64,000 nt of DNA, taken from NCBI GenBank assembly GCA_043807425.1, contig JAZDFZ010000021.1:574-64573 (forward strand), written 5' to 3'. This DNA comes from Actinomycetota bacterium. GTDB taxonomy: Bacteria > Actinomycetota > Geothermincolia > Fen-727 > Anoxymicrobiaceae. This document shows, one piece after another, positions 1 to 45,285 of the stretch (positions are counted from its first letter, which is position 1; each line of letters begins with the position of its first letter). The position numbers and the translations under genes were made by a program. The notes beneath the pieces are model-generated. The model worked only from the letters and a program-made list of their open reading frames with translations. It made no database searches and was not told where the DNA came from.

Positions 1-157
1 CGGAGATGGATAGCAGGACCAGCTTGCCGGCGGCCTCGGCCTCGGCGAAGGCGTCCAGGCCCCACCCGCGCCACTCTATCTCGCCCGCGCGGTTGGGCCT
101 TGGGCTGAAGCGGAACCTGCCGGTCCCGCTTCCGTTCGACTCGTCCGTGTTCGCCAT
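1..157 (-). CDS. DUF255/thioredoxin-like domain protein (YyaL/SSP411-type), 5' part only; runs off the window edge
   Basis: Manual translation from ATG at 157: MANTDESNGSGTGRFRFSPRPNRAGEIEWRGWGLDAFAEAEAAGKLVLLSIS, matching the DUF255 N-terminal pattern. Not in the ORF track. Confidence 0.75.
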   Translation of the reverse strand, partial: MANTDESNGSGTGRFRFSPRPNRAGEIEWRGWGLDAFAEAEAAGKLVLLSIS

Positions 158-208
158 GGTGGCCTGCCATCCCGTTGGGCGGGCCCGAAGACCCGCCCGA
201 TAAAGGAG

Positions 209-307
209 ACTCCTCCCGAGTACCCGGCAGCAGGAGATGGCACTGGGGGCTGCTCGTGGCTCGTTACCGGGGAGGGGGGTCCCCGGAGTACAGCACCCGG
301 GAGGAGT
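209..307 (-). ncRNA. Candidate structured RNA or leader with C-rich loops (6C-like)
   Basis: 16-bp closing stem (209-224/292-307, G-U pairs only on the minus strand) enclosing a 7-bp hairpin with a CCCCCC loop and a 5-bp hairpin with a C-rich loop. Confidence 0.4.
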
Positions 308-624
308 AAACCGTTCTTGTCAATCTCTCTTTTTGTCCAGGTCCCTGTCCTTTTTCGCGGACCGTAACGAGTTCTCCATGTTCACACACGGGAACTTGGT
401 TCCCGCGCAGTGCGAACAGCAGAATCCCTGCGTACTTCCCCTCTCGACCCTCTTCGGGTCCTTAACCTTTTGACGCATTAGTGACCTTTCTGTTCACAGG
501 ATACGCCCGGGGAGGGGGAATCGCATTGACATCAGTCAACGGTATGACGCGGGTCGGGTCCGTGGCTCCCCGGAGTGACGGGTGTCAGTGACTTACCACG
601 GGCACCATTGTTATCATCTTGCCT

Positions 625-1653
625 ATGAGCAGAGCAAAGAAGGCCCCCGGGCACGGAAAGATAGTGGTGATCTCCGACACGCACTTCGGGGACGAGACCC
701 AGTTGCTCGACGACAGGCGCACCGTGGACCGCCTCATGGAGGCGCTCGCCGACCGCGGGCCCGTGTCCGAGCTGATCCTGCTGGGCGACATACTGGACCT
801 CTGGGTCGAGACCCTGATGCCCTCGCTGCGGAAGGCCCGGTACTTCATCGAAAGCCTGTCGCGCCTGACCAACGTGGCGAGTGCGATCTACGTGCCGGGA
901 AACCACGACCACCAGATGTTCATGGACGCGTTCCGCCTGGAGCAGGACGTGCGCATAATGCAGGGCGATCTGTCCACCGCCCGGTTCATGCCCGCCCGCT
1001 CCTACGGCGAGACCCTGCTCAATGGCCTGGCGGCCCAGCGGAGCAGGCTCCACATCTCCATGACCTACCCGTACCTGGTCCGGCCGCTGGACGGCGGGGA
1101 GGTAGTCCTCGCTCACGGCCACCACCTCGACTTCTACGCGAAGACGCACGGCTGGGCCCGTACCTTCTGGCTGGGGCGGCACATTATTAGCAAGAGGGGC
1201 CACAGGCCGGTCACGCTGCACGACATCGAGATGGCGAACATCCCGTTCTGCGGCGCCATGTCCGCGGCCCCCTGGGTGCCCGAGCTCGTCGATGAGGGCC
1301 TGCGCTACTACAGGGTCATCAGCTTCTTCGGGCGCCTCTTCAGCTCCGACAAGCTACGCGAGTCGCCGCTGCGAGACTCCCTCATCCGGGAGAACTACGC
1401 CGAGATCGAGCAGCTCCTCCCGCAGTTCGGTACCCCCGAGCCGCTCTGCTTCGTCTACGGGCACACCCACCGTCCGGGCGTGGGGAGGCTTCCGGGCAGA
1501 AAGACCGTCATCGTCAACTGCGGGTCGTGGGTCCGGCAGAAGGAGGAGGCGATGCCCACCCGGACCTGGGTGGAGATCGACGGCGACATCAAGCTGTTCG
1601 AGCTGGGTCGCGAGGGCCCGGTGATGCTCACCAGGGAGGACCTTCTCGCCTAG
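625..1653 (+). CDS. Calcineurin-like metallophosphoesterase
   Basis: Motifs DTH, GD, GNHDH, HGH, GHTH. ATG at 625 lies 7 nt after a TGn-TATCAT -10 box. Confidence 0.85.
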   Translation: MSRAKKAPGHGKIVVISDTHFGDETQLLDDRRTVDRLMEALADRGPVSELILLGDILDLWVETLMPSLRKARYFIESLSRLTNVASAIYVPGNHDHQMFMDAFRLEQDVRIMQGDLSTARFMPARSYGETLLNGLAAQRSRLHISMTYPYLVRPLDGGEVVLAHGHHLDFYAKTHGWARTFWLGRHIISKRGHRPVTLHDIEMANIPFCGAMSAAPWVPELVDEGLRYYRVISFFGRLFSSDKLRESPLRDSLIRENYAEIEQLLPQFGTPEPLCFVYGHTHRPGVGRLPGRKTVIVNCGSWVRQKEEAMPTRTWVEIDGDIKLFELGREGPVMLTREDLLA

Positions 1654-1660
1654 CGAATAA

Positions 1661-1746
1661 GAAATAACCTCAACCATGAGAAATAACCTCAACCATCTTT
1701 TCTCAACCATGCGGTAGCCGTGAGACATAATGGTTGAGGTGAATTC
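1661..1746. repeat. REP-like family B (CCTCAACCA core), multi-unit copy
   Basis: GAAATAACCTCAACCAT twice in tandem, plus an inverted ATGGTTGAGGT unit. Confidence 0.8.
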
Positions 1747-1761
1747 CCACCAGGAGGTGTC

Positions 1762-1953
1762 ATGGACTGTCCGAGGACCGAGGAGAACCTGGAGTTCTGC
1801 AACTGCACCTACGAGCCGTGCAGCCGCAAGGGCCGGTGCTGCGAGTGCGTGCGCTACCACGTGACGAAACGGCAGCTGCCGGCCTGTGCGTTCCCGCCCG
1901 AGGCCGAGCGCACCTACGACCGCTCCTTCGAATGCTTCAAGCGCAGCGTCTGA
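1762..1953 (+). CDS. Small Cys-rich protein (DUF6485-like)
   Basis: AGGAGG RBS; CNCTYEPCSRKGRCCECVRYH pattern. Confidence 0.75.
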   Translation: MDCPRTEENLEFCNCTYEPCSRKGRCCECVRYHVTKRQLPACAFPPEAERTYDRSFECFKRSV

Positions 1954-2606
1954 TGAGTGTCGAACAGAGTGAGTCCGCGCGGGCGAGCTACAACAGGATG
2001 AGCCGCGTCTACGGCCTCCTCTCCAGCAGCAGCGAGAAGAAGTTCATCGAGGTCGCAATCCGGCAGGTGCTCGAGCCCCGGGATGGTGAGGTGATACTCG
2101 AGCCGGGGTTTGGCGCCGGGCAGGTCCTGTTGGCGCTGGCCCGGATGGTCGGCCCGACGGGCAGGGTCTCCGGCATAGACGTATCCGACGGCATGGTCGA
2201 GGCCGCCCGCAGGCGACTCGCGGGGAGCGGGGTCGAGGATCGAGTCGAGATACGACGGGGGGACGCCTCGTCCATGCCCTACGCCGACGCCACCTTCGAC
2301 GCGGTCTTCATGAGCTTCACCCTGGAGCTGTTTCCGGACGACGAGATACCGGTGGTCCTCTCGGAGTGCCGGCGCGTCCTGAAGCCCGGCGGCCGTATCT
2401 GTGTGGCCAGCATGTCGGCACGGGGGAAGAACGGTCTGATGATGCGGTCGTACGTGTGGGCACACCGCAGGTTTCCACACTTCGTGGACTGCAGGCCGGT
2501 ATTCGCGCGCAAGACGCTGGAGGACGCGGGGTTCGAGATACTGGACGAGAAGCTCCCGTCCATGTGGGGCCTCCCCGTCGAGATCGTCCTGGGTCGCTCC
2601 ACGTGA
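1953..2606 (+). CDS. Class I SAM-dependent methyltransferase (UbiE-like)
   Basis: ILEPGFGAG motif I, GIDVS, GDASSMPY, FDAVFMSF, VLKPGGR. ATG overlaps the upstream TGA. Confidence 0.85.
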   Translation: MSVEQSESARASYNRMSRVYGLLSSSSEKKFIEVAIRQVLEPRDGEVILEPGFGAGQVLLALARMVGPTGRVSGIDVSDGMVEAARRRLAGSGVEDRVEIRRGDASSMPYADATFDAVFMSFTLELFPDDEIPVVLSECRRVLKPGGRICVASMSARGKNGLMMRSYVWAHRRFPHFVDCRPVFARKTLEDAGFEILDEKLPSMWGLPVEIVLGRST

Positions 2607-2608
2607 TT

Positions 2609-2687
2609 CCCTCTCCCTTGACGGGGTAAGGGTCGGGGTGTCCTCTTTTCCCCTCCCCCTCGAGGGGGGAGGGTCAGGGTGGGGGTG
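2609..2687. repeat. REP-like family A palindromes (two copies) at the 3' end of the DUF559 gene
   Basis: Degenerate CCCTCTCCC-TTGAC-GGG..TCGGGGTG (2609-2640) and CCCCTCCCCC-TCGA-GGGGGGAGGG-TCAGGGTGGGGGTG (2650-2687). Confidence 0.85.
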
Positions 2688-3036
2688 TTCCCTCTTCGAG
2701 TACATCCACAATCGCCTCCAACACGGCATCCGTCCGTAGAAGAACATCGTCGTTCCAGAACCTCAGCACCGTAAAGCCTTCCTGATGCAGCCAGGATGAG
2801 CGTCTTTCATCATAGGCATTGTCGACATGCTGACCGCCATCCACTTCTATCACCAATCGTTCTTCCAGGCACACGAAATCGACAATGAAGTCTCCAAGCG
2901 GCTGCTGACGACGGAACTTGCACCCCAGCACCTGCCGCGCCCTCAGCAGTTGCCACAGGCACATCTCGGCATCAGTCTGGTTCTCGCGGAGCCCTCGTGC
3001 GAATGCAATTCGATCGGTCTTCGCCTTACTGCTCAC
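2674..3036 (-). CDS. DUF559 / Vsr-like (PD-(D/E)xK) endonuclease domain protein
   Basis: ARGLRENQTDAEMCLW, KFRRQQPLGDFIVDF, LVIEVDGGQH, GFTVLRFWNDDV. Confidence 0.92.
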   Translation of the reverse strand: MSSKAKTDRIAFARGLRENQTDAEMCLWQLLRARQVLGCKFRRQQPLGDFIVDFVCLEERLVIEVDGGQHVDNAYDERRSSWLHQEGFTVLRFWNDDVLLRTDAVLEAIVDVLEEGTPPP

Positions 3037-3041
3037 TGTGA

Positions 3042-3080
3042 CCCCCTCACCCCGACCCTCTCCCCCCAGGGGAGAGGGGG
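3042..3080. repeat. REP-like family A palindrome upstream of the DUF559 gene
   Basis: CCCCCTCACCCCGACCCTCTCCCC-CCA-GGGGAGAGGG, inverted relative to the 2650 copy. Confidence 0.85.
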
Positions 3081-3232
3081 ATTGTCGTATGCACTCACGA
3101 TCACTTGCTGCTGCTCAAAATAAAGCGCCGCGCCTTTGACCCGGAGGTCCGGCGCAGCGCCCTCTCCCTGATTCAGAGCCCCGCTCGAAGCGGAGCAAGC
3201 TAATCAGATATTAGCAGACCAGGCAAACTCTG

Positions 3233-5008
3233 TCAATCACCTTTGCCGAGAAAAAACTGGTGCGGGTCGAACATCCGCGCGAAGCGAAGCTCCTCGACCG
3301 AGGGCGCCTCGATCTCCACGACGTCGTCAGCCACCTCGAGATCCCAGCCGCAGGTCTCTTTCGCGCTCGCCAGGGCCGCCTCCCTGTCCCCGTCCGCCGC
3401 CGGGAAGTAGCCGGTCAGGACCAGCTCGCCGTCCCGCTTCTCGAGCAGCCCCCTGGTGGTCACCACCGCTGTGATGCGCTCCCCGGGACAGGTCACGTAC
3501 GGCACCTTCTCCACCAGCCGGAAAGGGAGGTGATCGGTCAGGATCACCACGTCCTTCGCACCGGCCGCCACGTCCGCCGCTCCGCCTGAGCCGACCAGCA
3601 GGAGCTTCATCTCGGGTATCGCGGTCGAGTTGATGTTGCCCCTCCGGTCCACCTGCCCGGCACCCAGCGAGCCGATACACCTGTTGCTGGGGGCGCCTAC
3701 CAGCGAGCCCAGGATGTCGTTGATGTCCGTGAGCATCGTGCACTGGGGGACGTTGCGCAGGTTGAAGATGAACGGGTCGGCCGGCTGCGGGCTGTAGCCG
3801 AAGAAACCGACCTCGGCGATGAGGTCGCAGTCGTGCCCCTCCTCCGCCAGGTTGTAGTAGGCCAGCCACGCCGCCAGGTTGCTCGCACCGACTCCAGCCA
3901 GGATGGTCCGGTAGCCGTTCTCCCGCGCTTTCCGCGCTATCACCCGGGCCCCCACGCTCACCATCATCTCCACGGGGTTGTACTCCGGTCCGGGGTTCAT
4001 CCGGGGGAGTGCATCCACCAGCTCGGAGGTCCAGGAGTCGAGAGCCGACTTGCCCTTGAGGTACCAGATCTTCTCGTGGCCGAGCTTCGCCAGGTACTCC
4101 TCGTGGTTCGCGCACCCCAGGATCCACTCGTCCATCCACTCCTGGAGCCTTGCCGGGTCCTTCGCCCTCTCCCGCAGATCCATCAGGAACTCGCGGTCCA
4201 CCTCGTAGCCCTCGACCTCGCGCTCCAGGCCGTAGTTGGACATCCCCGCAGGGTGCGAGCCCATGGGCACCACGCAGACGGCGTTCACGAGGTAGGCGGG
4301 CACCTTGACAAAGTGACTGAATCGCTTCAGGAACGAGTCGTCCACCAGCTTCTCGACGGTGACTATGGTGCCCTGCCTCGCGGAGCGCGCCGAGGCGGCG
4401 GTCTCCGCGTAGGGGGGGGCGCATATCAGGTTTCCGGCCGGGTCGGCCGCCCAGCCGTGCAGGAAGGTGAGGTCCGGGACCAGAGCGCGCACGAATCCTA
4501 CGGGTCCGTCCGGGGTTTCGACCTCGAAGTAATCCTCGTTCTCATCCGCGATGGTGGTGCCCGCAAGGGACGGCGCGGGGATGCAATCGAGCCCGAGCGC
4601 CCCGGCCAGCACCCTCAGCGAAAATGACAGTATAGTCCAGTGCTCCATCTCCACGGTGCCGTCCCGGTACGCCTGCTGGTAGACGGGATTGGGCCCCGGC
4701 ATGGGGTACGCGTCGCCGTAAAAGGTGCCGATGGCCTTCTTAATGATGCCCGCCGCAAAGACGGCCGACATGTCGCCCGTGAAGCCCAGAGTGCTGATGG
4801 TGAATCCCGGATCTGTCCCCCAGAACTGCCGAGCCAACTGCTGGTACACCGCGCAGGGCCTGGCGTAGCTGTGCCCGATGTGAATGAACATCCCCGGCCG
4901 CACGAAACGGTCGATCGCGTCCTCGAGCGACATCACCTTGTCCGCGGCGTGCCCGGCACGAGAGATGCGCTGCTGCCTGGCTACCGCCTCGTCGAAAGCA
5001 CCATACAT
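3233..5008 (-). CDS. Fused alpha/beta family I CoA-transferase (glutaconate CoA-transferase-like)
   Basis: KVMSLEDAIDRFVRPG N-terminus; GAGQVDRRGNINST and GSGGAAD in the C-terminal half. ATG at 5008 follows GAGGAG. Confidence 0.8.
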   Translation of the reverse strand: MYGAFDEAVARQQRISRAGHAADKVMSLEDAIDRFVRPGMFIHIGHSYARPCAVYQQLARQFWGTDPGFTISTLGFTGDMSAVFAAGIIKKAIGTFYGDAYPMPGPNPVYQQAYRDGTVEMEHWTILSFSLRVLAGALGLDCIPAPSLAGTTIADENEDYFEVETPDGPVGFVRALVPDLTFLHGWAADPAGNLICAPPYAETAASARSARQGTIVTVEKLVDDSFLKRFSHFVKVPAYLVNAVCVVPMGSHPAGMSNYGLEREVEGYEVDREFLMDLRERAKDPARLQEWMDEWILGCANHEEYLAKLGHEKIWYLKGKSALDSWTSELVDALPRMNPGPEYNPVEMMVSVGARVIARKARENGYRTILAGVGASNLAAWLAYYNLAEEGHDCDLIAEVGFFGYSPQPADPFIFNLRNVPQCTMLTDINDILGSLVGAPSNRCIGSLGAGQVDRRGNINSTAIPEMKLLLVGSGGAADVAAGAKDVVILTDHLPFRLVEKVPYVTCPGERITAVVTTRGLLEKRDGELVLTGYFPAADGDREAALASAKETCGWDLEVADDVVEIEAPSVEELRFARMFDPHQFFLGKGD

Positions 5009-12286: not shown

Positions 12287-13744
12287 TCAGTCCAGGCGCC
12301 AGCGGTACCCGCCGGCCACATCCTCCACGCGGACGCCCAGCTCCGCGAGACCTTCCCGTATCCTGTCGGCGAGCTCGAAGTCCTTGCGGGCACGGGCCTC
12401 CTGCCTCAGCTCGCAGAGCAGGCCTACCAGCCCGTCGGCCAGGCGGGCCATCTCTCCTCCGGCCTCCTCCTCCTCGAACAGGCCCACCGATCCGCAGAGC
12501 CCCTCCAGCAGTTCCAGCGCATCACGCAGCGCGGCCTTCTCCCCCGCCGTGCTTGCCTCTGTGAGCACCGCCAGGTAGGAGTTCGTCTCGCGGATCATCT
12601 CGAACACGGAGCCAAAAGCCGCCGCCGTGTTGAAATCGTCGTCCATGTGGGCGCGGAACTCCACCTCGGTCCTCTCCAGCATGGTTCGGAATCCCCGCTC
12701 GGCCTCCGTGGGGCGCTCGTCCTCCCCGCCGACCTCAGTGTCAAAACGGGCGATTGCGTCCCGGAGGTTGAAGCGGCAGTTCTCTAAGCGCTCCAGCGCG
12801 GAGGCAGCCTCGGCGAGGCTCGTATCGGAGAAGCTCAGGGGGCTGCGGTAGTGCGTGCCCAGCATGAGCATCCTGACCGCGTCGCGGTCGAAATCGGAGA
12901 GCACCTCCCGCAGCGTCTTGATGTTGCCCAGCGACTTGGACATCTTCTCCGCGTCGATGTTCAGCATCCCGCTGTGTATCCAGTAGCGCACGAACGGCCC
13001 GGCGCCGGCCCATGCTTCGGCCTGGGCCCTCTCGTTCTCGTGGTGAGGGAACACCAGGTCGAGCCCGCCGCCGTGGATGTCGAAACCCATGCCCAGGTAC
13101 TGCACCGACATGGTCGAGCACTCCATGTGCCAGCCGGGTCTCCCCGGGCCCCAGGGGCTCTCCCACGAGGGCTCACCCGGCTTGGCCGCCTTCCACAGGG
13201 CGAAGTCCTGGGGGTCGCGCTTGCGCTCCGCGGGGTTCACGCACTCGGTCACCATCTGCTCGTCAAGCGCGCGCCCGGATAGCTTCCCGTACGAGGGGAA
13301 CTTCGCAACCTCGAAGTAGACGTCGCCCTCGGAGACGTAGGCTACGCCCTTTTCCACCAGGACTCCGATGACCTCCAGCATCTCGTTGACGTGCTCCGTG
13401 GCGCGGGGGGCGATAGTGGGCGACCTGACCCCCAGAGCCCTCATGTCCTCCTCGAAGGCCACCCGGTACTTCTCGGCGAGTTGCTCGGCCTCCAAGCCCT
13501 CCTCGCGTGCCCGACTGATTATCTTGTCGTCTATGTCGGTGACGTTCTGGGCGAAGGTGACGTCGTAGCCCGCGAACTCCATGTATCGCCGTATGAAGTC
13601 GAAGTTGAGGAAGGTGCGCGCGTTGCCGATGTGGATGTAGTTGTACACGGTCGGCCCGCACACGTACATGAGGACCCTGCCCTCCTCGCGGGTGACGAGG
13701 TCCTCCTTCCGCCGCGTCATGGTGTTGTAGATCCTGATGGCCAT
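12287..13744 (-). CDS. cysS: Cysteine--tRNA ligase
   Basis: MYVCGPTVYNYIHIGNAR, PGRPGWHMECS, FPHHENE, KMSKS. Confidence 0.98.
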   Translation of the reverse strand: MAIRIYNTMTRRKEDLVTREEGRVLMYVCGPTVYNYIHIGNARTFLNFDFIRRYMEFAGYDVTFAQNVTDIDDKIISRAREEGLEAEQLAEKYRVAFEEDMRALGVRSPTIAPRATEHVNEMLEVIGVLVEKGVAYVSEGDVYFEVAKFPSYGKLSGRALDEQMVTECVNPAERKRDPQDFALWKAAKPGEPSWESPWGPGRPGWHMECSTMSVQYLGMGFDIHGGGLDLVFPHHENERAQAEAWAGAGPFVRYWIHSGMLNIDAEKMSKSLGNIKTLREVLSDFDRDAVRMLMLGTHYRSPLSFSDTSLAEAASALERLENCRFNLRDAIARFDTEVGGEDERPTEAERGFRTMLERTEVEFRAHMDDDFNTAAAFGSVFEMIRETNSYLAVLTEASTAGEKAALRDALELLEGLCGSVGLFEEEEAGGEMARLADGLVGLLCELRQEARARKDFELADRIREGLAELGVRVEDVAGGYRWRLD

Positions 13745-13879: not shown

Positions 13880-14839
13880 TCACTGCTTTATTGCAGGTAC
13901 ATAGATGCAGGTTTCGGGGCCGGAAAGACAGTAGACTGGCTGCAGGAACTGATTGGTCGTCTTCGAGGGGTCGGCGTAGTAGATCAGCTCCACCCGCGAG
14001 ACCTCAGGGTTCTCCACATCAGGATGGAGGTTCATCGTGTTATTGCCCTTCTCTGCGTCCTCGATTGCTTCTTTAAGCGATTTGACCTCGAACTTCTTGT
14101 AGGGAACCAGGTTTCTCATGGTGCTGTCGACGCCGATCAGCTCCCCATCGGTCCCCAGCGAAACCATGATGCGCATCCCGGGTCCGACTATTGGCCTGCC
14201 ATCGGCCTTTCTGGATATCTCCACATCCCTTTGAAGCCGGATCTTCGTGACCTGTCCATCGTCATGGTGCAAAGTCTCTCTCTGCGGACCACCGATCATC
14301 GATACATAAGCTTCATGGGGAAGGAGACCCAGTTCTTCGAGAGTGCTCATAGCAATTCTTCCAGATTCCTCAACAGAGGGGAGGTCTGGATTCTCCTGCC
14401 CGTACTTCGAGCCGATCCAGAACTGGTAGTTCCCGTTGTTGTAGTAGTAATGGAAGATGCGCCCGAAGTTCTGGTCCCCTTCAATTGCATAGTAGCTATC
14501 GTAGTCCTCGTACTGGAACGACCCCTTGAGCTTGATTTCATCCCGTTGGATTTCGTGATTTATGCCGAACTTCCGAGCAAGCATCTGTATCTCTGCCGCC
14601 CCATCAGCGATTTGCTCGAAACGATAGACGGTCAGTCTATACGGAGCCTGTGGAATATCTTTGGCGGTCAGGACCAGTCTGCCCTTCACGGGCTTGTTCG
14701 CGGCTTCAGGTGGGGCGTCCAGTGGCAGAACTGCGGCACCCCCCTTCAGGAGCAATGCGAGGACAAACGCAGTGCCGACAATTGCGACCAGCGCACCACC
14801 GATAGCAATACAGGTAGACTTGGATACTGGCTTCCTCAT
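13880..14839 (-). CDS. Membrane-anchored hypothetical protein, partner of the giant secreted protein
   Basis: N-terminal TM helix; ATGA overlap with the upstream gene; C-terminal ELIYY...LQPVYCLSG. Confidence 0.8.
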   Translation of the reverse strand: MRKPVSKSTCIAIGGALVAIVGTAFVLALLLKGGAAVLPLDAPPEAANKPVKGRLVLTAKDIPQAPYRLTVYRFEQIADGAAEIQMLARKFGINHEIQRDEIKLKGSFQYEDYDSYYAIEGDQNFGRIFHYYYNNGNYQFWIGSKYGQENPDLPSVEESGRIAMSTLEELGLLPHEAYVSMIGGPQRETLHHDDGQVTKIRLQRDVEISRKADGRPIVGPGMRIMVSLGTDGELIGVDSTMRNLVPYKKFEVKSLKEAIEDAEKGNNTMNLHPDVENPEVSRVELIYYADPSKTTNQFLQPVYCLSGPETCIYVPAIKQ

Positions 14840-17800
14840 AGCGGGGGTGGCTCCTCCTCGATGTGCAAATCGACCTCGAGGTAACCGAAGTGCATGTTGT
14901 GGTTGAGGAACAACACCTGGTAGTCCTGGCCTCGCTCCACGCTCGAGGGAACGACAACCCTGACCCTGTGCTCGTCAATGAATGCCACAGGTTGCTGTAT
15001 ATACTGCCGGGTCCCTTCAGCGCCCGTCTTTCTGAACCGGACTATGACACCTGGGTCGAACGGCTGTGGTGTTTCTCCGGGACCTCCTACGGACAACGCA
15101 GTGAATTCTACTTCCTCGCCCGGTTGCACGATGTGGTCCACAGTCACTACTGTGATGTCGCTCTTGGGTAATTCGCTGTCTGGCAATTCCACGAAGCCTC
15201 CATCATCATTGACGTAATCGCAAACCTCGAACTCCCAACTGGTGTCCGAATCGGCATTTGGGTCATCTGACTGTGGCCCGTGGCCGAAGAAAAAGTCACC
15301 GAATGAGTTCGTGGCGCCATAAACGACCGCGAGGTTGTATGGATCCCAAATGCTTCTTTCCTCCCATATTTGTGCTTCGTCCCTCCTGTCTTGGGCCTGG
15401 TTGTGATAATTCGCGAGTTTCCAGGCCTCTTTGATATTCCTTGGTCCGGGCTGAGTTATCGACCTGGCAGTTTCAGTGCCAACAACCCCATCCATCCAAG
15501 CCTTGGTTCCCATACCCATCAAGAGGTGCAGTCCCTTAGCGACTGTCACCGCGTTGAACCTCCGGTCGATATCCGGCAAGTTGGAGTAATCAGCTGGGTT
15601 GTAGGGAGTATCTTCAGGAACAACGCCCGGTTTCGCCGATCTGTCTGGAACATGAGCGGCTACATCAGCCTGGTTGTCTCCGGCAAACAGCTTGCAATTG
15701 TAGACGATCGCCCACTCCAAATCCTGGTCTCCCCAGCCCAAGCTAGATGAATGTAACACACCACCGTTTAGTCCGAGCCCATTCTGGTAGTCGATGATCG
15801 AGACTACCGAACCGGCAGCCCGTTGCAGCCACCCATGACCCGCATTCATGACCAGGTCTACATTATCGGACGAGAGGGGATCTTGACCTTCGGTTTTTGG
15901 ATCTCCGGGATTCTGGAAATAGTCTCGTGAGTCCCTCTCCCTGCCGGCAAGAAGGGGCGGATACTCCGGCTCGTTTCCTCTCCTTTGCCTTATTCTTGCT
16001 CCATCGAGGGCGAACACAGTGGCAAGCCCCTCGCATGCATCCACCGCTCCCGGTATGTTAAAGATGCTGTATGATATCCCCACCTCGGGTTGCGTTTCGT
16101 CGTAGTCATTATCTTGTTCGTGATTCTGACCAAGGCCATGCCATGGGAGAACGTCTGTTGTCTCAAAGTCAGAAACTGCGCTTCCATCGCCTGCCGGCGC
16201 CGGGCCGTTTTCTACTCCAAAGTGGCACCAGTCGTTCCACTCCGCGTTAAACGGGTTCTCCGGATCGCTGTTCAGTAACTGCACGCCGTAGTTGGAATCC
16301 CATAGATTGCAGCCATTCACGATAGGCTGGTCAGGGCGGGAGTAGTCGTCTAGGTCCACCAGGACCGCGACATCGCAATAGGAAATCGTGGTGGCTCCGG
16401 GTTCGTCGTCATCGATCCTGGTGCAAGTATCACCCGACAGCCTGATCCCGGTGCCGCCTCTATCTCCGTAGGATGTACCACCGTCTATAATGAGCTTGCT
16501 CAGAATTGGGGAACAGTTGTCCACGTTTAGGAGCGCACTCCCGGAACCACCGTAGGCGAGCCGGGTCCATTGGACGAAGCACTGGTCATTCGCCAGACTG
16601 ATTCCTCCCCAGTCGTTGTACGACGGGTAGTGAATCAGCCCATCATTACTGGTGGGTCCGCCAACCGAATCGTCATACAAGCTGGTGATGCAGATCCGGT
16701 CCTGTTGTGTACCGACGCACTGTAGCGACCCGGCGACAGTCATCCTCACATCCAGCCACTTGATGATAACGCCTGGGTCGATCACCAGGGTAGAACCGGC
16801 CGGGACCGTGAAATCATTCTCGGTCATGGTATATGGAACGAGGTTGGCCATGAAGCGAATGGAGTTGGTGGCGAACCACGAGTAGGCGGAAAGCTCAATG
16901 CCATTAATCCTGCAGCCGGTGCCACTATTGGCGAATATCTGCAGGTTCTCCAGCCCATCATCAACCCTCCCCAGGAACTCCGTGCAGTTGTTCACGGTGT
17001 TTTCAGCGACAGTGGTCATTGCATCGCACCCATCGATCTTGATCCCGTACTGACAGCTCTCGATCAGATTTCCTTGAACTGCCGGCGTCCCCCTGGTGAT
17101 CTGCACCCCCACCGCCCGCATCCCGTTGATATGCAGTCCGTTCTGTATCGTAGGGCTCCCCCCCTCGATCCAGACCCCGTAGTCTCCATCCTGCATGGAG
17201 GCGGTAGAGCCGCTCGAGTTCTCGACCAGTGCGCTGCCGTCCACCACCCTCACCGATGCCATCGCGGGTGCCGGCGGGGGATCACCGCCCAGGATCTTCA
17301 CCTGGTAGGTGGACAGGTCCCTCACAAGTGGAGAGCCGGAAAAGACATGCACGCCGTCGGAAGCGCAGCAGGATATCGAGCAGGAGGTCACCTGGTGGTC
17401 TCCACGCACCCCGATGGCGCCTCCGTCGATGGGGGCGATTCCCCCCACGTAGGAGATATCGCAGAAGGAGAGGGTCGAGGCTTGAAGCGGCTCCGTGTTC
17501 TCGAGCCTTATGCCCTTCCAATCCCCGGGATTGGGATTCTGCGCTGGAGGCAGGTTGTAGGTTTGGCCTCCCACGGTGTCGTAGATCGATGTAATGGTGA
17601 CATGCTGGTCTGAGGTGCCACCCGCCTGCAGGCGGCCCCAGACCCAGATGGTGGACTGCTCCCCGGCCTTGATCCTGGTTCCGGGCTCGATCGCCAGGGT
17701 GGCTCCGGTCGTCACCGTTATACCTGAGGGCTGACCGGTGTCGTAGAGGACGAAGGGCAGGTCGGGATTGGAGTTGTCCCACCTCATGTCCGAGGAATAG

Positions 17801-20800
17801 GTGCCCTGCACCCTTATCCCGTTTATGCCGTTGCCGTCTGAGGGGTCCTCCCCCTCGGGTCTCTTCCAGGTGTTGCCCGAAAGCTCGCTCCAGGAGCAGT
17901 CCGACATGTAGATGGTGTCTCCAGAACATGAGTGGATGCGGTTTCCGGTCACGGAGGGATATGGCTCGACGTAGCCGGGTTCCTTTGCCACCACGATCCC
18001 GGAGGCGCAGCCCGTGATGGTGTTGTTCCTGAAGGTCGGAGTGCCGCCCTTGGCCACCAGGCCCGTACCCGCAAGGCCGCTCGCGGTGCAGTCCTCCACG
18101 ACCGGCGAGCCGCCCAATACCGATACCGCGGTCTGGGTGAGGGCGCCCGAGACCTCGTCCAGTCGGTGGAAGAGGCAGTCACGGATGAGGGGAGAGCCGC
18201 CCCGGACCTCCACCCCCACCCGGGTGTAGTCGCTCATGACCGTGTTCTCTATCAGGTGGCTTCCGTCCAGCACCAGGTTCATCTCCTCGGTGCCAGACCC
18301 TCCGCCGTATCGCATCACGCAGTGGGAGAGCGTGGAGGGCTCGATCGAGTTGTAGAAGTAGACGATGAACCAGTCTCCACAGCGGGGCTGGCTCGGACCG
18401 TCCCCGTTGGTGTCCCCGTAGACAGGGTCGTCGTCCTTGAGCGAGGTGATGGTGATGGGGTCCACCGCCGTGATGTTTCCTTCTGCATCCCGGATGGCCC
18501 CATCAGCCTGGAGTACACCGTCAACGATTATGGTGGCGTTCCGGAGTCCGGATTGTGCCTTTATCATCACCCCGGGCTCGATGGTAAGCCTTGCTCCGTA
18601 GTTGATGGTCATCGGTCTGGTCAGGATGTAGGGGCTGTACCTCTTCTCCAGGCGGTAATCGGGGTCGTTGATGACCTCGGGTAGGATGCTGGGGATGTGT
18701 ACCTGAGCGGTACCAGTGACGCCTTCAAACGTCGCGTTGATCGTCCCTGTGCCCCAGCCGGTGGCGTCGAATAAACCGCTCTGAGAATCTATGGTTCCCA
18801 CCCAGGCATCGCATGACCACTCCGGGGTTATGGTCACGGGGTTTTCATCCTGGTCCCGCCCGATCGCCTCGAACTGCTGCTGCGAGCCGTTGTAGAGGGT
18901 GATGTCAGAGGGTGTGACTTCTATGGAGGTGAGGGTCTGGACGGCTGTTACGGTGAATCCGTCGGTGAGGGTACCCATGCCTGCGTCCGGGTTGATCACG
19001 GATACGCTCCAGGGGCCGGGCTCGGCCTCATAGAGGTCCAGGGTGCAGGTGATGTGCTCGTGGGAGACCACGATCACCTCCATGGCGGTGATATCTGCGT
19101 GTCCTTCCCGGGTGAGCCTGACGATCGCTCCCTGTGCGAAGCTGGAGCCGGAGACCTCGGCTGCCTCCATTACCTCGCCGGTCCGTCCCTTATCAGGGGT
19201 GATGCCTGAGACAATGGGAGCGGGATTCACGGTGAAGGCATTGGGAAGCGTCCCCTCTCCGGCATAGGTGTCTCTCACCACCAGTTCGTAGGGGCCGGGT
19301 TCGGCGTCCCTGAGGTCCAGAGTGCCGGTTATCTGCTCCTCTGAGAACGAGAGGTTGGAGGCGGTGATGGTCAGATCGCCTCTTACAAGGACCACGGTAT
19401 CGGTGTGGTCCAGGTGGGTCCCGACTATGGTCACCCTGACCTCTTGTGCTCCGCTTCCCGCACTTGCAGGGGTTATGGAAGCGGGAGATGGCGGGGGGTT
19501 GACCGTGAAGCCGTTGGGAAGGACACCGCTCTGGGAATCGGGGTTGGTCACTACCACGTCCCAGGAGCCGGAGGCGGCCTGGCTCAAGTCCAGGGTGCCG
19601 GTCATCTCCGATGTGGAGAGCACTGTCTCGTTCTCGGCTTCGATGTCGGTGTGACCCGTTCGAGAGAGCCGGAAGGAGGTCTTTTCGTCTGAGGTTCCGT
19701 TCACGAAGCCGGTCCCGGTGACCGTGACGGAGACCACGCCGTTTTCGCTGTTCGCCCAGTCGGGCTCGATCGAGGTGACGGTTGGTGGAGGAAGGGAATC
19801 GACGGTGAAGCCTCCTCCCAGGGAGCCGGAGCCGTCGTCGGGATTGGTGACGACCACGTTCCAGGCTCCGGGAGAGGCGCCGGTGAGGTCGAGGGTGCAG
19901 GTTATCTTCTGGGCCGAGACCACCACTACCTCTGTGGCGGTGATGTCGGGCTGTCCGTCGCGCGTGAGCCTGACGGTCGCACCATCCTGGAACCTGTCTC
20001 CGGCGAGGTCCGTTATCTGGACTATCTCCCCGGTCCTGGCGCTTGAAGGGGTGATAGAGGTGAGAACAGGTCCCGGGATAACGGTGAAGCCCCCGGCGAG
20101 CAGGCCCCTTCCACCGTCGGGGTTGGTCACCACCACGTCCCAGACCCCGGGGGTAGCTCCTGTCAGGTCGAAGGTGCAGTTGATTGTGTAATAGGAGAGG
20201 ACGTTCTCTCCTTCCGCCTGGATGGAGGGCTTTCCCTCCATCTCCAGGGAGACCTGGGCTCCGGGTGAGAAGAGGTTCCCATTAACCGTCGCCGGTTGGT
20301 TGGCCTTGCCGCTCGGCGCGCTGTTCGGGATGATCCCGTAGACCCTGGGGTACTGGTTGACGGTGAAGCCACGGGCAAGTGTTGCGGTTCCTCCGTCCAG
20401 GTTGGTGACCACCAAGTTCCAGGGGCCGGCGGAGGCTCCCACCAGGTCGAACGTGCACGTTGCATGTGTGTGCGATTCATCTACCGAGGTGGTAGAGGCC
20501 CATATGGTATTAGAGCCCCTCTGGAGCTTGAAGGCGGCCTGGAAATCGAAGTTCGCTCCGGTGATGACCGCTTCGAAGGAGGGGTTGCCGCTTCCCGCGT
20601 TGTCGGGCGTGATGGAGAGTATGGTGGGGTTGGAGGTGACCGTGAAGCCGCCTGTGAGCAGGGATCTTCCCCCGTCGGGGTTGATGACGTGGACATCCCA
20701 TGCGCCGAGGGCGGCGTTCGAGAGGTCGAGGGACAGGCTTATGGTGGTGCCGTAGCGTACCTCTAGGACTGTAGCTATTATGTCCGGGCAACCAGACCGG

Positions 20801-21663
20801 GTGAGCTTCACCAAGAGACCTTCCTCGAAGTGCCGTCCACGGATCTGGGCTATGAAGGCGGGGTTCCCGGTGCCGCCTGAGGACGGTCTTATGGAGCGCA
20901 CCTCGGGGGCGGGATTCACGTAGAAGCCGAACTGGAGGGTCGCGCTGCCCCCGCCCGGATTTGTGACCACCACGTCGTAGTACCAGTCGTCGGCTCCAGT
21001 GAGGTCGAAGACGCCGTCTATCCTGGTGGGTGAGACCACGGTTGCCGGATTTGCCACGATGTCGTCTCGGCCGTTGCGCCTCAGGGCTACTTGCGCCCCG
21101 GTCACGAAGTTGGCACCGGTGAGGATTGTGTACACGGCGGGGTTTCCGCTTCCGGCGTTGTCCGGGGTGATGGAGGAGATGGTGGGGAGCGGGGCGAGGA
21201 CGGAGAATCCGTTATGAAGCGTACCCCTTTTTCCGTCGGGGTTGATGACCACCACGTTCCAGGACCCGGGTGGAGCTCCTGAGAGGTCCAGGGTGCAGGT
21301 TATCTTCTTTGAAGAGACCACCCGGACGTACTTCGCCTCGATGGAGTTCTGGCCGCTGCGGGTGAGCCTCACGGAAGCGCCGTCTCGAAAGCCGGTACCG
21401 GAGAGTTTCGTGATGCGCACGCTGGTGTCTCCGCTGCGAGCGGTGTTGGGGGTGATGGAGGTGACGGTGGGAGCGGGGGCGCGGTGTTCAGTAAGCGTCG
21501 AGTTCAGAGAGGATGCCAGGCCCCCCCCCATTGGAGTTTGTACTGGATCATGATCCGCCGCCAGGGCTCCGGTTGAAGATACCAGCAATGACGTGAGGAA
21601 CAGGAATAGTACGATGAAGAAGAATAGCGTGGTCCCGGTTCTGGAATAGGAATTGCCGCTCAT
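14836..21663 (-). CDS. Giant secreted protein (2275 aa): signal peptide, 9 IPT/TIG repeats, Big-2-like domain, 3 parallel beta-helix modules, DUF6345-like domain, C-terminal Ig-like domain
   Basis: Nine P-x-(V/I)-x-SI-x-P repeats; LTSIEVTP; three PY...G..L.I.PG starts; NAGHG and IVYNC motifs; GGGGAGG RBS. Confidence 0.85.
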   Translation of the reverse strand: MSGNSYSRTGTTLFFFIVLFLFLTSLLVSSTGALAADHDPVQTPMGGGLASSLNSTLTEHRAPAPTVTSITPNTARSGDTSVRITKLSGTGFRDGASVRLTRSGQNSIEAKYVRVVSSKKITCTLDLSGAPPGSWNVVVINPDGKRGTLHNGFSVLAPLPTISSITPDNAGSGNPAVYTILTGANFVTGAQVALRRNGRDDIVANPATVVSPTRIDGVFDLTGADDWYYDVVVTNPGGGSATLQFGFYVNPAPEVRSIRPSSGGTGNPAFIAQIRGRHFEEGLLVKLTRSGCPDIIATVLEVRYGTTISLSLDLSNAALGAWDVHVINPDGGRSLLTGGFTVTSNPTILSITPDNAGSGNPSFEAVITGANFDFQAAFKLQRGSNTIWASTTSVDESHTHATCTFDLVGASAGPWNLVVTNLDGGTATLARGFTVNQYPRVYGIIPNSAPSGKANQPATVNGNLFSPGAQVSLEMEGKPSIQAEGENVLSYYTINCTFDLTGATPGVWDVVVTNPDGGRGLLAGGFTVIPGPVLTSITPSSARTGEIVQITDLAGDRFQDGATVRLTRDGQPDITATEVVVVSAQKITCTLDLTGASPGAWNVVVTNPDDGSGSLGGGFTVDSLPPPTVTSIEPDWANSENGVVSVTVTGTGFVNGTSDEKTSFRLSRTGHTDIEAENETVLSTSEMTGTLDLSQAASGSWDVVVTNPDSQSGVLPNGFTVNPPPSPASITPASAGSGAQEVRVTIVGTHLDHTDTVVLVRGDLTITASNLSFSEEQITGTLDLRDAEPGPYELVVRDTYAGEGTLPNAFTVNPAPIVSGITPDKGRTGEVMEAAEVSGSSFAQGAIVRLTREGHADITAMEVIVVSHEHITCTLDLYEAEPGPWSVSVINPDAGMGTLTDGFTVTAVQTLTSIEVTPSDITLYNGSQQQFEAIGRDQDENPVTITPEWSCDAWVGTIDSQSGLFDATGWGTGTINATFEGVTGTAQVHIPSILPEVINDPDYRLEKRYSPYILTRPMTINYGARLTIEPGVMIKAQSGLRNATIIVDGVLQADGAIRDAEGNITAVDPITITSLKDDDPVYGDTNGDGPSQPRCGDWFIVYFYNSIEPSTLSHCVMRYGGGSGTEEMNLVLDGSHLIENTVMSDYTRVGVEVRGGSPLIRDCLFHRLDEVSGALTQTAVSVLGGSPVVEDCTASGLAGTGLVAKGGTPTFRNNTITGCASGIVVAKEPGYVEPYPSVTGNRIHSCSGDTIYMSDCSWSELSGNTWKRPEGEDPSDGNGINGIRVQGTYSSDMRWDNSNPDLPFVLYDTGQPSGITVTTGATLAIEPGTRIKAGEQSTIWVWGRLQAGGTSDQHVTITSIYDTVGGQTYNLPPAQNPNPGDWKGIRLENTEPLQASTLSFCDISYVGGIAPIDGGAIGVRGDHQVTSCSISCCASDGVHVFSGSPLVRDLSTYQVKILGGDPPPAPAMASVRVVDGSALVENSSGSTASMQDGDYGVWIEGGSPTIQNGLHINGMRAVGVQITRGTPAVQGNLIESCQYGIKIDGCDAMTTVAENTVNNCTEFLGRVDDGLENLQIFANSGTGCRINGIELSAYSWFATNSIRFMANLVPYTMTENDFTVPAGSTLVIDPGVIIKWLDVRMTVAGSLQCVGTQQDRICITSLYDDSVGGPTSNDGLIHYPSYNDWGGISLANDQCFVQWTRLAYGGSGSALLNVDNCSPILSKLIIDGGTSYGDRGGTGIRLSGDTCTRIDDDEPGATTISYCDVAVLVDLDDYSRPDQPIVNGCNLWDSNYGVQLLNSDPENPFNAEWNDWCHFGVENGPAPAGDGSAVSDFETTDVLPWHGLGQNHEQDNDYDETQPEVGISYSIFNIPGAVDACEGLATVFALDGARIRQRRGNEPEYPPLLAGRERDSRDYFQNPGDPKTEGQDPLSSDNVDLVMNAGHGWLQRAAGSVVSIIDYQNGLGLNGGVLHSSSLGWGDQDLEWAIVYNCKLFAGDNQADVAAHVPDRSAKPGVVPEDTPYNPADYSNLPDIDRRFNAVTVAKGLHLLMGMGTKAWMDGVVGTETARSITQPGPRNIKEAWKLANYHNQAQDRRDEAQIWEERSIWDPYNLAVVYGATNSFGDFFFGHGPQSDDPNADSDTSWEFEVCDYVNDDGGFVELPDSELPKSDITVVTVDHIVQPGEEVEFTALSVGGPGETPQPFDPGVIVRFRKTGAEGTRQYIQQPVAFIDEHRVRVVVPSSVERGQDYQVLFLNHNMHFGYLEVDLHIEEEPPPL

Positions 21664-21787: not shown

Positions 21788-22465
21788 TCAGGACCCGTCG
21801 TCCAGGCGTTTTTCGATGCGGTCCAGGCGGCGCTCGATGGTGTTGAACATGTCCAGCACCGGGTCGGGCAGGTCCTCGTGGTGCAGGTCGATCGGGCTGA
21901 TGCGCTCGCCCGAGCAGACCGTCACGCGACCCGGGACCCCAACCACCGTGCAGTTGGGAGGCACGTCCTGGATTACGACCGCCCCGGCGCCCACCTTGGA
22001 GCTCTCCCCCACCGTGATCGGACCCAGCACGCTGGCACCCGCGGCGATGACCACGTTGTCCTCGATGGTGGGGTGGCGCTTGCCCTTCTCCTTGCCCGTG
22101 CCTCCCAGCGTGACCCCCTGGAACAGGGTCACGTTCTTGCCGATCTCGGTCGTCTCGCCGATGACCACGCCCATGCCGTGGTCAATGAAGAAGCCGTGCC
22201 CTATCGTCGCGCCCTGGTGTATCTCTATGCCGGTGAGCATGCGGGCGAACATGGAGATGGCCCTGGGCAGCCCCGGCACCTTCCGTCGCCAGAGGTAGTT
22301 GGCCACGCGGTGCAGCCAGACCGCGTGCAGGCCCGGGTAGGTGAGGATCACCTCGAGCGTGTTGGTGGCCGCCGGGTCCCGGTCCTTGACCGCCTCGACG
22401 TCGGAGCGCAACACGGCAACGGCGTCGCTCAAGAACTCCCCGAGCGTCCTGTGAGCTTCAGCCAC
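21788..22465 (-). CDS. cysE: Serine O-acetyltransferase
   Basis: [43 protein letters not shown]. Confidence 0.96.
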
Positions 22466-44631: not shown

Positions 44632-44997
44632 CAGGTGAGGCGGAAGGCGGGTAGGCGGTTGCTTGAGGTCTGACGCAGGTGCACTCCTCCCGCCCCACCT
44701 GAGGGCAAACTAACACAGACTGGCATCCACACTTCCTACGGCTCGAATCCTTTCGCGCTTACGTGGATACCTACCTCGTATTAGTCTTCGGGAACCCCGG
44801 GCGGTATCAACATACGTCGTTGGAACCATTACCGCGGGCAATAGGGTGACCGCTCCCCTCACCAATTGGCCGACCGGACCTGGATCGAGATGGCGGGCAT
44901 CGGGTCCGGACAGGACATCGGTCCATGACCGTGAACGGTGAGAGGTCGCGGAGGGGGTGGATCTGAGCATAAAAAAACGGCGATTTCGCATCGCCTT
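44632..44997 (-). ncRNA. Candidate stand-alone structured RNA
   Basis: Downstream of a sigma70-like promoter; several stems with G-U pairs on the minus strand; no recognisable ORF product. Confidence 0.35.
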
Positions 44998-45002
44998 GGA
45001 CC

Positions 45003-45030
45003 ATTCTATCACAGGTGGCCCGTGCGTCAA
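45003..45030 (-). promoter_or_regulatory. Sigma70-type promoter
   Basis: TTGACG-N16-TAGAAT with an extended TG. Confidence 0.55.
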
Positions 45031-45285
45031 ACAGACCAAGCAAACCTCTCTGAGCCCCATCAACGCTACATGTTGTATGAATTGGGATGAATAGCCCGGT
45101 TCAGGCACAACATGTCGAGTCTCATTTTTCTAGTGTGAATACGCCCGGTCACGGGACCACACGCCTGCAGCCGCGTACCGTCTCCCATAAGAGGAAATCA
45201 CGAGCCCCGCCTACAACTATATATTTGAGTCCGGTACGCTGGACGGCTTGGCACAGCCGTCAACCCTACATCCACCGGTGGCGAC

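Follow-up and report, generated by a model that had tools for sequence, protein, structure and literature searches.

Organization of the locus

The window analyzed here, a stretch of 64,000 nucleotides from the genome of an actinobacterium of the family Anoxymicrobiaceae (GenBank assembly GCA_043807425.1, contig JAZDFZ010000021.1, positions 574 to 64,573 of the forward strand; all coordinates below are those of the window), carries on its minus strand a module of two genes. The first gene encodes a giant surface protein of 2275 amino acids (aa) that includes a domain of the Pfam family DUF6345 (PF19872), and the second encodes a 319-aa partner with an N-terminal membrane anchor. This work is concerned with the DUF6345 domain, which is considered as a candidate Cys/His hydrolase resembling the peptidases of clan CD, and with its relation to the partner protein. 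The first gene is organized as follows.

14836..21663, minus strand: gene 1 (P0001), coding for a giant secreted surface protein of 2275 aa; longest open reading frame and its translation, with Pfam matches to TIG, Big_2, Beta_helix/NosD and DUF6345
21556..21663, minus strand: predicted signal peptide, residues 1-36, with a basic n-region, the hydrophobic core TLFFFIVLFLFLTSLLV and an ALA/AD cleavage-type site; by eye from the translation
18937..21459, minus strand: nine IPT/TIG-type immunoglobulin-like (Ig) repeats of ~90 aa each, residues 69-909, the stalk; Pfam TIG, 5.3e-16
18700..18930, minus strand: Big_2-like Ig domain, residues 912-988; Pfam Big_2, E 0.0025, below the cut-off
16129..18666, minus strand: right-handed beta-helix modules, residues ~1000-1845, with approximate boundaries; Pfam Beta_helix, 1.1e-18, and NosD, 2.5e-7
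15214..16086, minus strand: DUF6345 domain, residues ~1860-2150, candidate clan-CD-like Cys/His hydrolase; Pfam PF19872, structural model, fold matches and HHalign comparison with Peptidase_C14
14854..15141, minus strand: C-terminal beta-sandwich (TIG-like), residues ~2175-2270; by eye, conserved in proteins P0005-P0011 and in the paralogue from the same genome

The predicted Sec-type signal peptide makes it reasonable to consider the gene 1 protein extracellular. All nine TIG repeats were recovered in a jackhmmer self-search of the protein, each with an E-value from 1e-32 to 1e-45. The C-terminal beta-sandwich has no Pfam match, a scan against NCBIfam returned only noise, and neither an LPXTG motif nor a C-terminal membrane helix nor an SLH domain was found in the translation or by the Pfam scan.

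The DUF6345 family

The domain scores 48.6 bits against PF19872 in the context of the whole protein and 56.4 bits when isolated, well above the Pfam gathering cut-off of 26.9, and the match comes in two pieces, profile positions 51-119 and ~130-217, which are split by an insertion. Compared with canonical DUF6345 domains, the domain in the window belongs to a divergent subfamily, distinguished by the split match and by the TIG-like terminal domain that follows it. This subfamily is rare, given that an exhaustive HMMER search identified 8 relatives of the domain among 1.84 billion cluster representatives; a word-indexed homologue search yielded no matches with the single domain and one match with the alignment. 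All 15 relatives included in the alignment match PF19872.

Canonical DUF6345 genes were gathered from 12 of 301 Actinomycetota genomes; further representatives, from Trueperaceae/Deinococcales, one deltaproteobacterium, an uncultured archaeon and Methanoculleus chikugoensis, came from a pattern scan across all species genomes. Many members of the family are small stand-alone proteins of 226-306 aa. Full-text literature searches for the function of DUF6345 returned no paper, and the sole mention that they found is the listing of a DUF6345 protein in the vesicle proteome of Tannerella forsythia (PMC10682907).

One of the 8 relatives is encoded in the genome of the window itself, as a paralogue of the gene 1 protein with 29% identity over the C-terminal region. 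This paralogue (contig C50:2960-10997, loci L001 and L003) is a 2342-aa open frame with the same TIG, beta-helix, DUF6345 and terminal domains, in which the GHG motif described below is replaced by GHA and the His and Cys residues are retained. Another family member, a 556-aa fusion of DUF6345 with the partner module (L013), has no obvious N-terminal signal peptide, and, judging from this N-terminus, some DUF6345 proteins may be cytoplasmic.

An invariant His/Cys pair

The preliminary description of this DNA, based on the letters and their translations, had pointed to a GHG motif and, 47 residues downstream, a Cys, each preceded by a hydrophobic strand and together followed by the further strand GLHLLMGM, and had likened them to the catalytic dyad of caspases, gingipains and CHAT proteases, proposing an extracellular cysteine protease. 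In the translation of gene 1, DLVMNAGHG corresponds to residues 1936-1944 and EWAIVYNC to residues 1983-1990, the spacing between His1943 and Cys1990 is indeed exactly 47 residues, and both motifs, as well as GLHLLMGM, are contained within the PF19872 match. The relevant features of the domain are the following.

15835..15837, minus strand: His1943 codon, candidate general base in the GHG that follows strand beta-3; identical in all 24 sequences, aligned with the catalytic His of Peptidase_C14 and CHAT
15694..15696, minus strand: Cys1990 codon, candidate nucleophile following strand beta-4; identical in all 24 sequences, aligned with the catalytic Cys of Peptidase_C14 and CHAT
15511..15534, minus strand: GLHLLMGM, strand beta-5, residues 2044-2051; His2046 (15526-15528) kept in 22 of 24 sequences and Gly2050 (15514-15516) in 21 of 24
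15544..15678, minus strand: insertion of ~45 aa, residues ~1996-2040, directly after Cys1990; in the 15-sequence alignment, found only in the subfamily of the window

The alignment of 24 homologues covers Actinomycetota, Deinococcota, one deltaproteobacterium and archaea, and across this range His1943 and Cys1990 are the only columns that are identical in all sequences; hence, the co-occurrence of the GHG motif and the Cys cannot be attributed to chance. In the 15-sequence alignment, where identity drops to 15%, the invariant columns are only these two and Gly2050. His2046 is replaced by Arg in two of the 24 sequences (L011 and L013). Strict conservation of exactly one His and one Cys, as seen in the larger alignment, is what a catalytic dyad would be expected to show.

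Apart from the dyad, the domain contains a set of nearly invariant acidic residues, E1909, D1911, D1928, D1933, D1936 and D1981, along with a WGDxDLEW motif; together they fall within residues 1909-1936 and 1978-1984 (~15712-15939). Strands 3 and 4 have D1936 and D1981 at their N-terminal ends, remote from the dyad, and the acidic set could form a Ca2+ (metal) site or a face for binding the partner. An assignment of P1 specificity from these residues was considered and dropped because several of them lie at those N-terminal strand ends, with the dyad on the opposite side of the sheet.

Predicted fold and comparison with clan CD peptidases

Clan CD includes caspases, metacaspases, legumains, gingipains, separase and the CHAT proteases of the CRISPR and CBASS (cyclic oligonucleotide-based antiphage signaling system) defence systems. 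The caspase-hemoglobinase fold is an alpha/beta/alpha sandwich with a six-stranded sheet in the order 2-1-3-4-5-6, with the catalytic His placed after strand 3 and the catalytic Cys after strand 4. A model of the DUF6345 domain was built with AlphaFold2 on the 15-sequence alignment, with a mean predicted local distance difference test score (pLDDT) of 75.7, a predicted template modeling score (pTM) of 0.80 and 122 residues with pLDDT of at least 90. The order of elements in the predicted structure, b1-a1-b2-a2-b3-(H94)-hairpin-b4-(C141)-a-[insertion]-a-b5-a-a-b6 in domain numbering, is that of the caspase-hemoglobinase fold, with each residue of the dyad directly following a beta strand, as had been anticipated from the sequence (residues 88-92 and then H94; residues 135-139 and then C141). 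Part of the insertion after the Cys is disordered in the predicted structure (pLDDT below 50 for domain residues 153-168).

When the model was compared with the Protein Data Bank (PDB) using Foldseek, the ten best matches were all clan CD peptidases, including caspase-9, legumain beta, caspase-4, Dronc and MALT1, with caspase-9 at the top of the list (E 0.011, prob 0.82). Metacaspase-9 and caspase-2 appear lower, and the matches below the top ten that do not belong to clan CD are mostly generic flavodoxin-like folds. The alignments and the fold search gave none of the outcomes that, according to the preliminary description, would have contradicted its interpretation; the scores of the fold search are nevertheless weak, the best being the E-value of 0.011.

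Sequence profiles provide a separate line of comparison. Profiles of Peptidase_C14 and CHAT were made from genuine actinobacterial members and compared with the DUF6345 profile by HHalign. Against C14, the DUF6345 profile obtained Prob 42-52%, E 1.5-2.7e-4 and scores of 35-37 over up to 134 columns, in an alignment that runs from strand 1 to past the Cys and places GHG on the catalytic SGHG and the Cys on the catalytic Cys of C14. The null comparisons all scored far lower: reversed C14 gave Prob 0.2%, E 0.32 and score 14.2, 25 column-shuffled C14 profiles gave Prob of at most 0.3% and scores of at most 15.2, and the unrelated-family control, the partner protein against C14, gave Prob 0.2%, E 0.34 and score 14.1. 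As a positive control, C14 against CHAT gave Prob 93.8%, E 1.7e-7 and score 56.0. The comparison of DUF6345 with CHAT pairs the same dyad residues and is not significant (Prob 0.5%, E 0.11, score 17.8; nulls 14-15.5); of the families named at the outset, CHAT in particular is not the nearest.

Other Cys/His enzymes were considered and set aside. In papain-like and transglutaminase-like enzymes, NlpC/P60, class I amidotransferases, DJ-1/PfpI and pyroglutamyl peptidase, the Cys precedes the His, the reverse of the order in DUF6345. The order of DUF6345 is shared by sortases and L,D-transpeptidases, but these are all-beta folds, whereas the model alternates strands and helices, and neither group is found among the fold matches.

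In the MEROPS clan CD families C14 (caspases, metacaspases, orthocaspases and MALT1) and C13 (legumain), a His-Gly pair follows a hydrophobic strand and the Cys follows the next strand, as in DUF6345; the correspondence extends to the predicted order of secondary structure elements, the best fold matches and the register of the dyad in the C14 profile. There are also differences. The C14 profile has an Asp at position -2 relative to the Cys (consensus 'lDcC') that is not conserved in DUF6345, an extra beta-hairpin follows the His, and, in the subfamily of the window, a 45-aa insertion follows the Cys. Furthermore, the DUF6345 domain of the window is predicted to be exported, is embedded in a 2275-aa surface protein and is coupled to a PepSY/FTP-type partner, which, to our knowledge, has not been described for any clan CD family.

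The membrane-anchored partner

The second gene of the module overlaps the first and has the following features.

13880..14839, minus strand: gene 2 (P0002), coding for the 319-aa partner, which combines a membrane anchor at the N-terminus with an ectodomain of tandem PepSY type; structural model, Foldseek and linkage to DUF6345
14836..14839, minus strand: stop codon of gene 1 and start codon of gene 2, overlapping in ATGA, suggestive of translational coupling; junction CTATGAGG
14747..14812, minus strand: predicted transmembrane helix of the partner, residues 10-31, CIAIGGALVAIVGTAFVLALLL; by eye from the translation
14111..14242, minus strand: FTP-like motif of the partner, residues ~200-243, RKADGRPIVGPGMRIMVSLGTDGELIGV; HHalign comparison of the partner with the FTP profile

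P0002 itself has no match in Pfam or NCBIfam, and its relatives show sub-threshold Pfam similarity to FTP (PF07504; 13.9 bits, cut-off 21), PepSY (PF03413; 17.5 bits, cut-off 24) and YcdB/DUF4901. The model of the ectodomain is of high quality (pLDDT 87.7, pTM 0.85), and its best Foldseek matches are YycI (E 7e-7), EUBREC_2869 (7e-6) and the C-terminal domain of YpeB (5e-5), followed by a weaker match to the fungalysin prodomain 4k90_B (E 0.012, prob 0.91). HHalign aligns the partner profile with the FTP propeptide motif and the segment that follows it (Prob 90%, E 1.3-1.8e-6), and the comparison with the 60-aa PepSY profile alone is not significant. The only invariant residues of the partner are one Gly and one Pro, a pattern that suits a module for binding and not an enzyme.

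The association of the two components is conserved. A P0002-type module adjoins DUF6345 or is fused to it, on either side, at nearly every locus examined; the single exception seen is L011, a short locus of ~2 kb. The module is encoded by an adjacent gene in the genus of the window (L014, L020, L067 and L068), in other Actinomycetota (L008, L009, L010 and L012) and in archaea (Methanoculleus, L075, and the uncultured archaeon, L069), whereas it is fused to the N-terminal side of DUF6345 in L005-L007, L016, L071-L074 (among them the Trueperaceae protein at L072) and L076-L078, and to the C-terminal side in L013 and in the 523-aa protein L015/P0012. The genome of the window encodes exactly two giant DUF6345 proteins, each with one partner gene directly downstream. 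At L069 (positions 89-3432), a single DUF6345 gene has two partner genes in tandem behind it, encoding proteins of 323 and 333 aa, which suggests duplication or diversification of the partner in archaea.

The partner resembles two kinds of known proteins. Its second subdomain matches the FTP motif of the FTP-PepSY propeptides of the M4 and M36 metallopeptidases, and, as these propeptides accompany a secreted hydrolase, the partner accompanies a candidate one. Unlike the propeptides, however, the partner is separate and membrane-anchored or, in relatives, fused to either side of the enzyme, and its presumed client is a Cys/His domain of predicted caspase fold and not a zinc metallopeptidase. 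With YycI/YycH and YpeB of Bacillus (PDB 2o3o and 5boi), the partner shares an N-terminal membrane helix followed by extracellular tandem domains at a sequence identity of 10-12%; the clients of these proteins, the histidine kinase WalK and a lytic transglycosylase, respectively, are not caspase-fold domains. YpeB is the obligate partner of the secreted hydrolase SleB.

Of the contextual evidence, the linkage to a propeptide-like partner speaks most strongly for DUF6345 being a peptidase. Two other functions could be served by the same fold. One is that of a transpeptidase or transamidase which, like GPI8 (the GPI-anchor transamidase, where GPI stands for glycosylphosphatidylinositol) and PorU (the sortase of type IX secretion), both clan CD transpeptidases, would attach the giant protein or another protein to the cell envelope, with the partner as acceptor or platform. 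The evidence for the dyad and the fold serves this explanation equally well; moreover, no anchor is recognizable in the gene 1 protein, in contrast to the membrane helix at the N-terminus of the partner, and the enzyme domain occupies the C-terminal part, in which surface proteins of Gram-positive bacteria usually carry their anchoring signals. Nevertheless, this function appears unlikely: no conserved C-terminal sorting signal or cleavage motif was found, the many small stand-alone members have nothing obvious to attach, and the partner is most similar to propeptides and regulators of proteases, not to acceptors.

The other is catalysis by a caspase-like Cys/His enzyme on a non-protein substrate, such as an amide of the cell wall, an ester or a thioester, that is, an amidase, acyltransferase or thioesterase activity. 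Such a role would be compatible with the strict conservation of the dyad alone, with no assignable residues of an S1 pocket, and with the upstream beta-helix modules, which are typical of carbohydrate-binding or carbohydrate-active surface proteins. It is quite improbable, however, in view of the relationship of the partner to protease propeptides and of the fact that the characterized clan CD enzymes, as far as we know, act on peptide bonds.

Assessment and proposed mechanism

On balance, we consider it fairly probable that the DUF6345 domain is a previously unrecognized cysteine hydrolase of the clan CD type, with a caspase fold, most likely a peptidase, and that it is served by a propeptide-like keeper acting in trans. 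Several results weigh against this conclusion. Foldseek found no PDB match at E of 0.001 or below, and the superpositions with the clan CD matches have template modeling (TM) scores of only 0.31-0.39 with a root-mean-square deviation of ~10 Å, although the long low-confidence loops of the subfamily in the window probably lower the TM values. Sequence and profile searches of the PDB with the domain returned no relevant match, and none of 15 DUF6345 members matched Peptidase_C14 (PF00656), CHAT (PF12770) or any other peptidase family in Pfam, even at E = 10. The HHalign probability for the relationship with C14 reaches ~50% at most, and that with CHAT is not significant. Finally, the partner does not prove proteolysis, given that PepSY-type proteins also regulate non-proteases, as in the pairs YycI/WalK (a kinase) and YpeB/SleB (a lytic enzyme). 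The structural evidence is consistent with the caspase type and not decisive. The absence of C14 and CHAT matches in Pfam, together with the profile scores, places the domain outside both families, and DUF6345 is best seen, at the level of sequence comparison, as a separate family that is at most a clan-level relative of C14.

The weak statistics of the fold search would also be accounted for if DUF6345 were a non-catalytic binding or scaffold domain, a pseudo-enzyme in which the His and the Cys have a structural or metal-binding role and the partner is a simple membrane receptor; the conserved acidic residues, some of which are found at the start of strands 3 and 4, might then form a metal site. 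We regard this as very unlikely. Pseudo-enzymes usually lose their catalytic residues, whereas His1943 and Cys1990 are the sole invariant residues across bacteria and archaea and fall exactly in the register of the C14 catalytic residues, and a structural metal site typically takes more than two residues.

Under the favored interpretation, that of a clan-CD-type hydrolase with a keeper, Cys1990 at the end of strand 4 would act as the nucleophile that attacks the peptide bond, with His1943, in the GHG turn that terminates strand 3, as the general base, as suggested by the conservation of these residues and their predicted positions. The partner would bind the DUF6345 domain in trans, outside the membrane, and may function as a folding helper, an inhibitor or a tether of the enzyme domain; this role is proposed by analogy with the FTP-PepSY propeptides of the thermolysin- and fungalysin-type proteases (M4 and M36) and with the YpeB-SleB pair. 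The partly disordered 45-aa loop after Cys1990 is a candidate site of cleavage and activation, and we infer from the HHalign register that it occupies the position of the inter-subunit linker of caspases. As the gene 1 protein has no recognizable anchor, the partner may, in addition, hold the stalk on the cell.

A broader proposal, which is possible but should be regarded as tentative, is that DUF6345 and its partner constitute a hitherto undescribed surface system of two components that is widespread in bacteria and archaea, in which a new family of clan CD cysteine peptidases (or transpeptidases) depends for folding, latency and membrane attachment on a dedicated keeper of the PepSY/FTP type, provided in trans. 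In the case at hand, the keeper would be the sole anchor of the 2275-aa stalk, and cleavage of the loop after the Cys would either activate the enzyme or release the stalk.

If the favored interpretation is correct, clan CD gains a further family, predicted to be exported, present in bacteria and archaea and accompanied by a propeptide-like partner. It would also represent a new regulatory arrangement, in which a cysteine enzyme of the caspase fold is governed by a module so far known from the propeptides of metalloproteases, and it would give a Pfam domain of unknown function a role that can be put to the test.

Genomic context

In 17 relatives outside the genus, cysE is located directly upstream of cysS (~90 nt apart in L122), and it is absent within 1.5 kb of cysS only in the genome of the window and in a congener, because the 7.8-kb two-gene module (13880-21663) lies between the two genes. 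In the window, the module is flanked by cysS at 12287-13744 and by cysE at 21788-22465. The guanine plus cytosine content is 0.54-0.59 across 14-18 kb, compared with ~0.64 in the flanks. The interruption of the cysE/cysS pair and this drop in composition indicate that the module is a genus-specific insertion, probably acquired horizontally. No match to either protein of the module was obtained with the PADLOC and PHROGs models, and thus no link to known defence systems or phages is seen. For this actinobacterium, the proposed function would suggest the recent acquisition of a surface organelle, in the form of a long stalk whose base carries an enzyme, encoded between two housekeeping genes.

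Elsewhere in the window, ARAGORN predicts a tRNA-Val(GAC) at 44970-45061 on the minus strand, which, at 92 nt, is unusually long for a class I tRNA and may contain an insertion or be a miscall.

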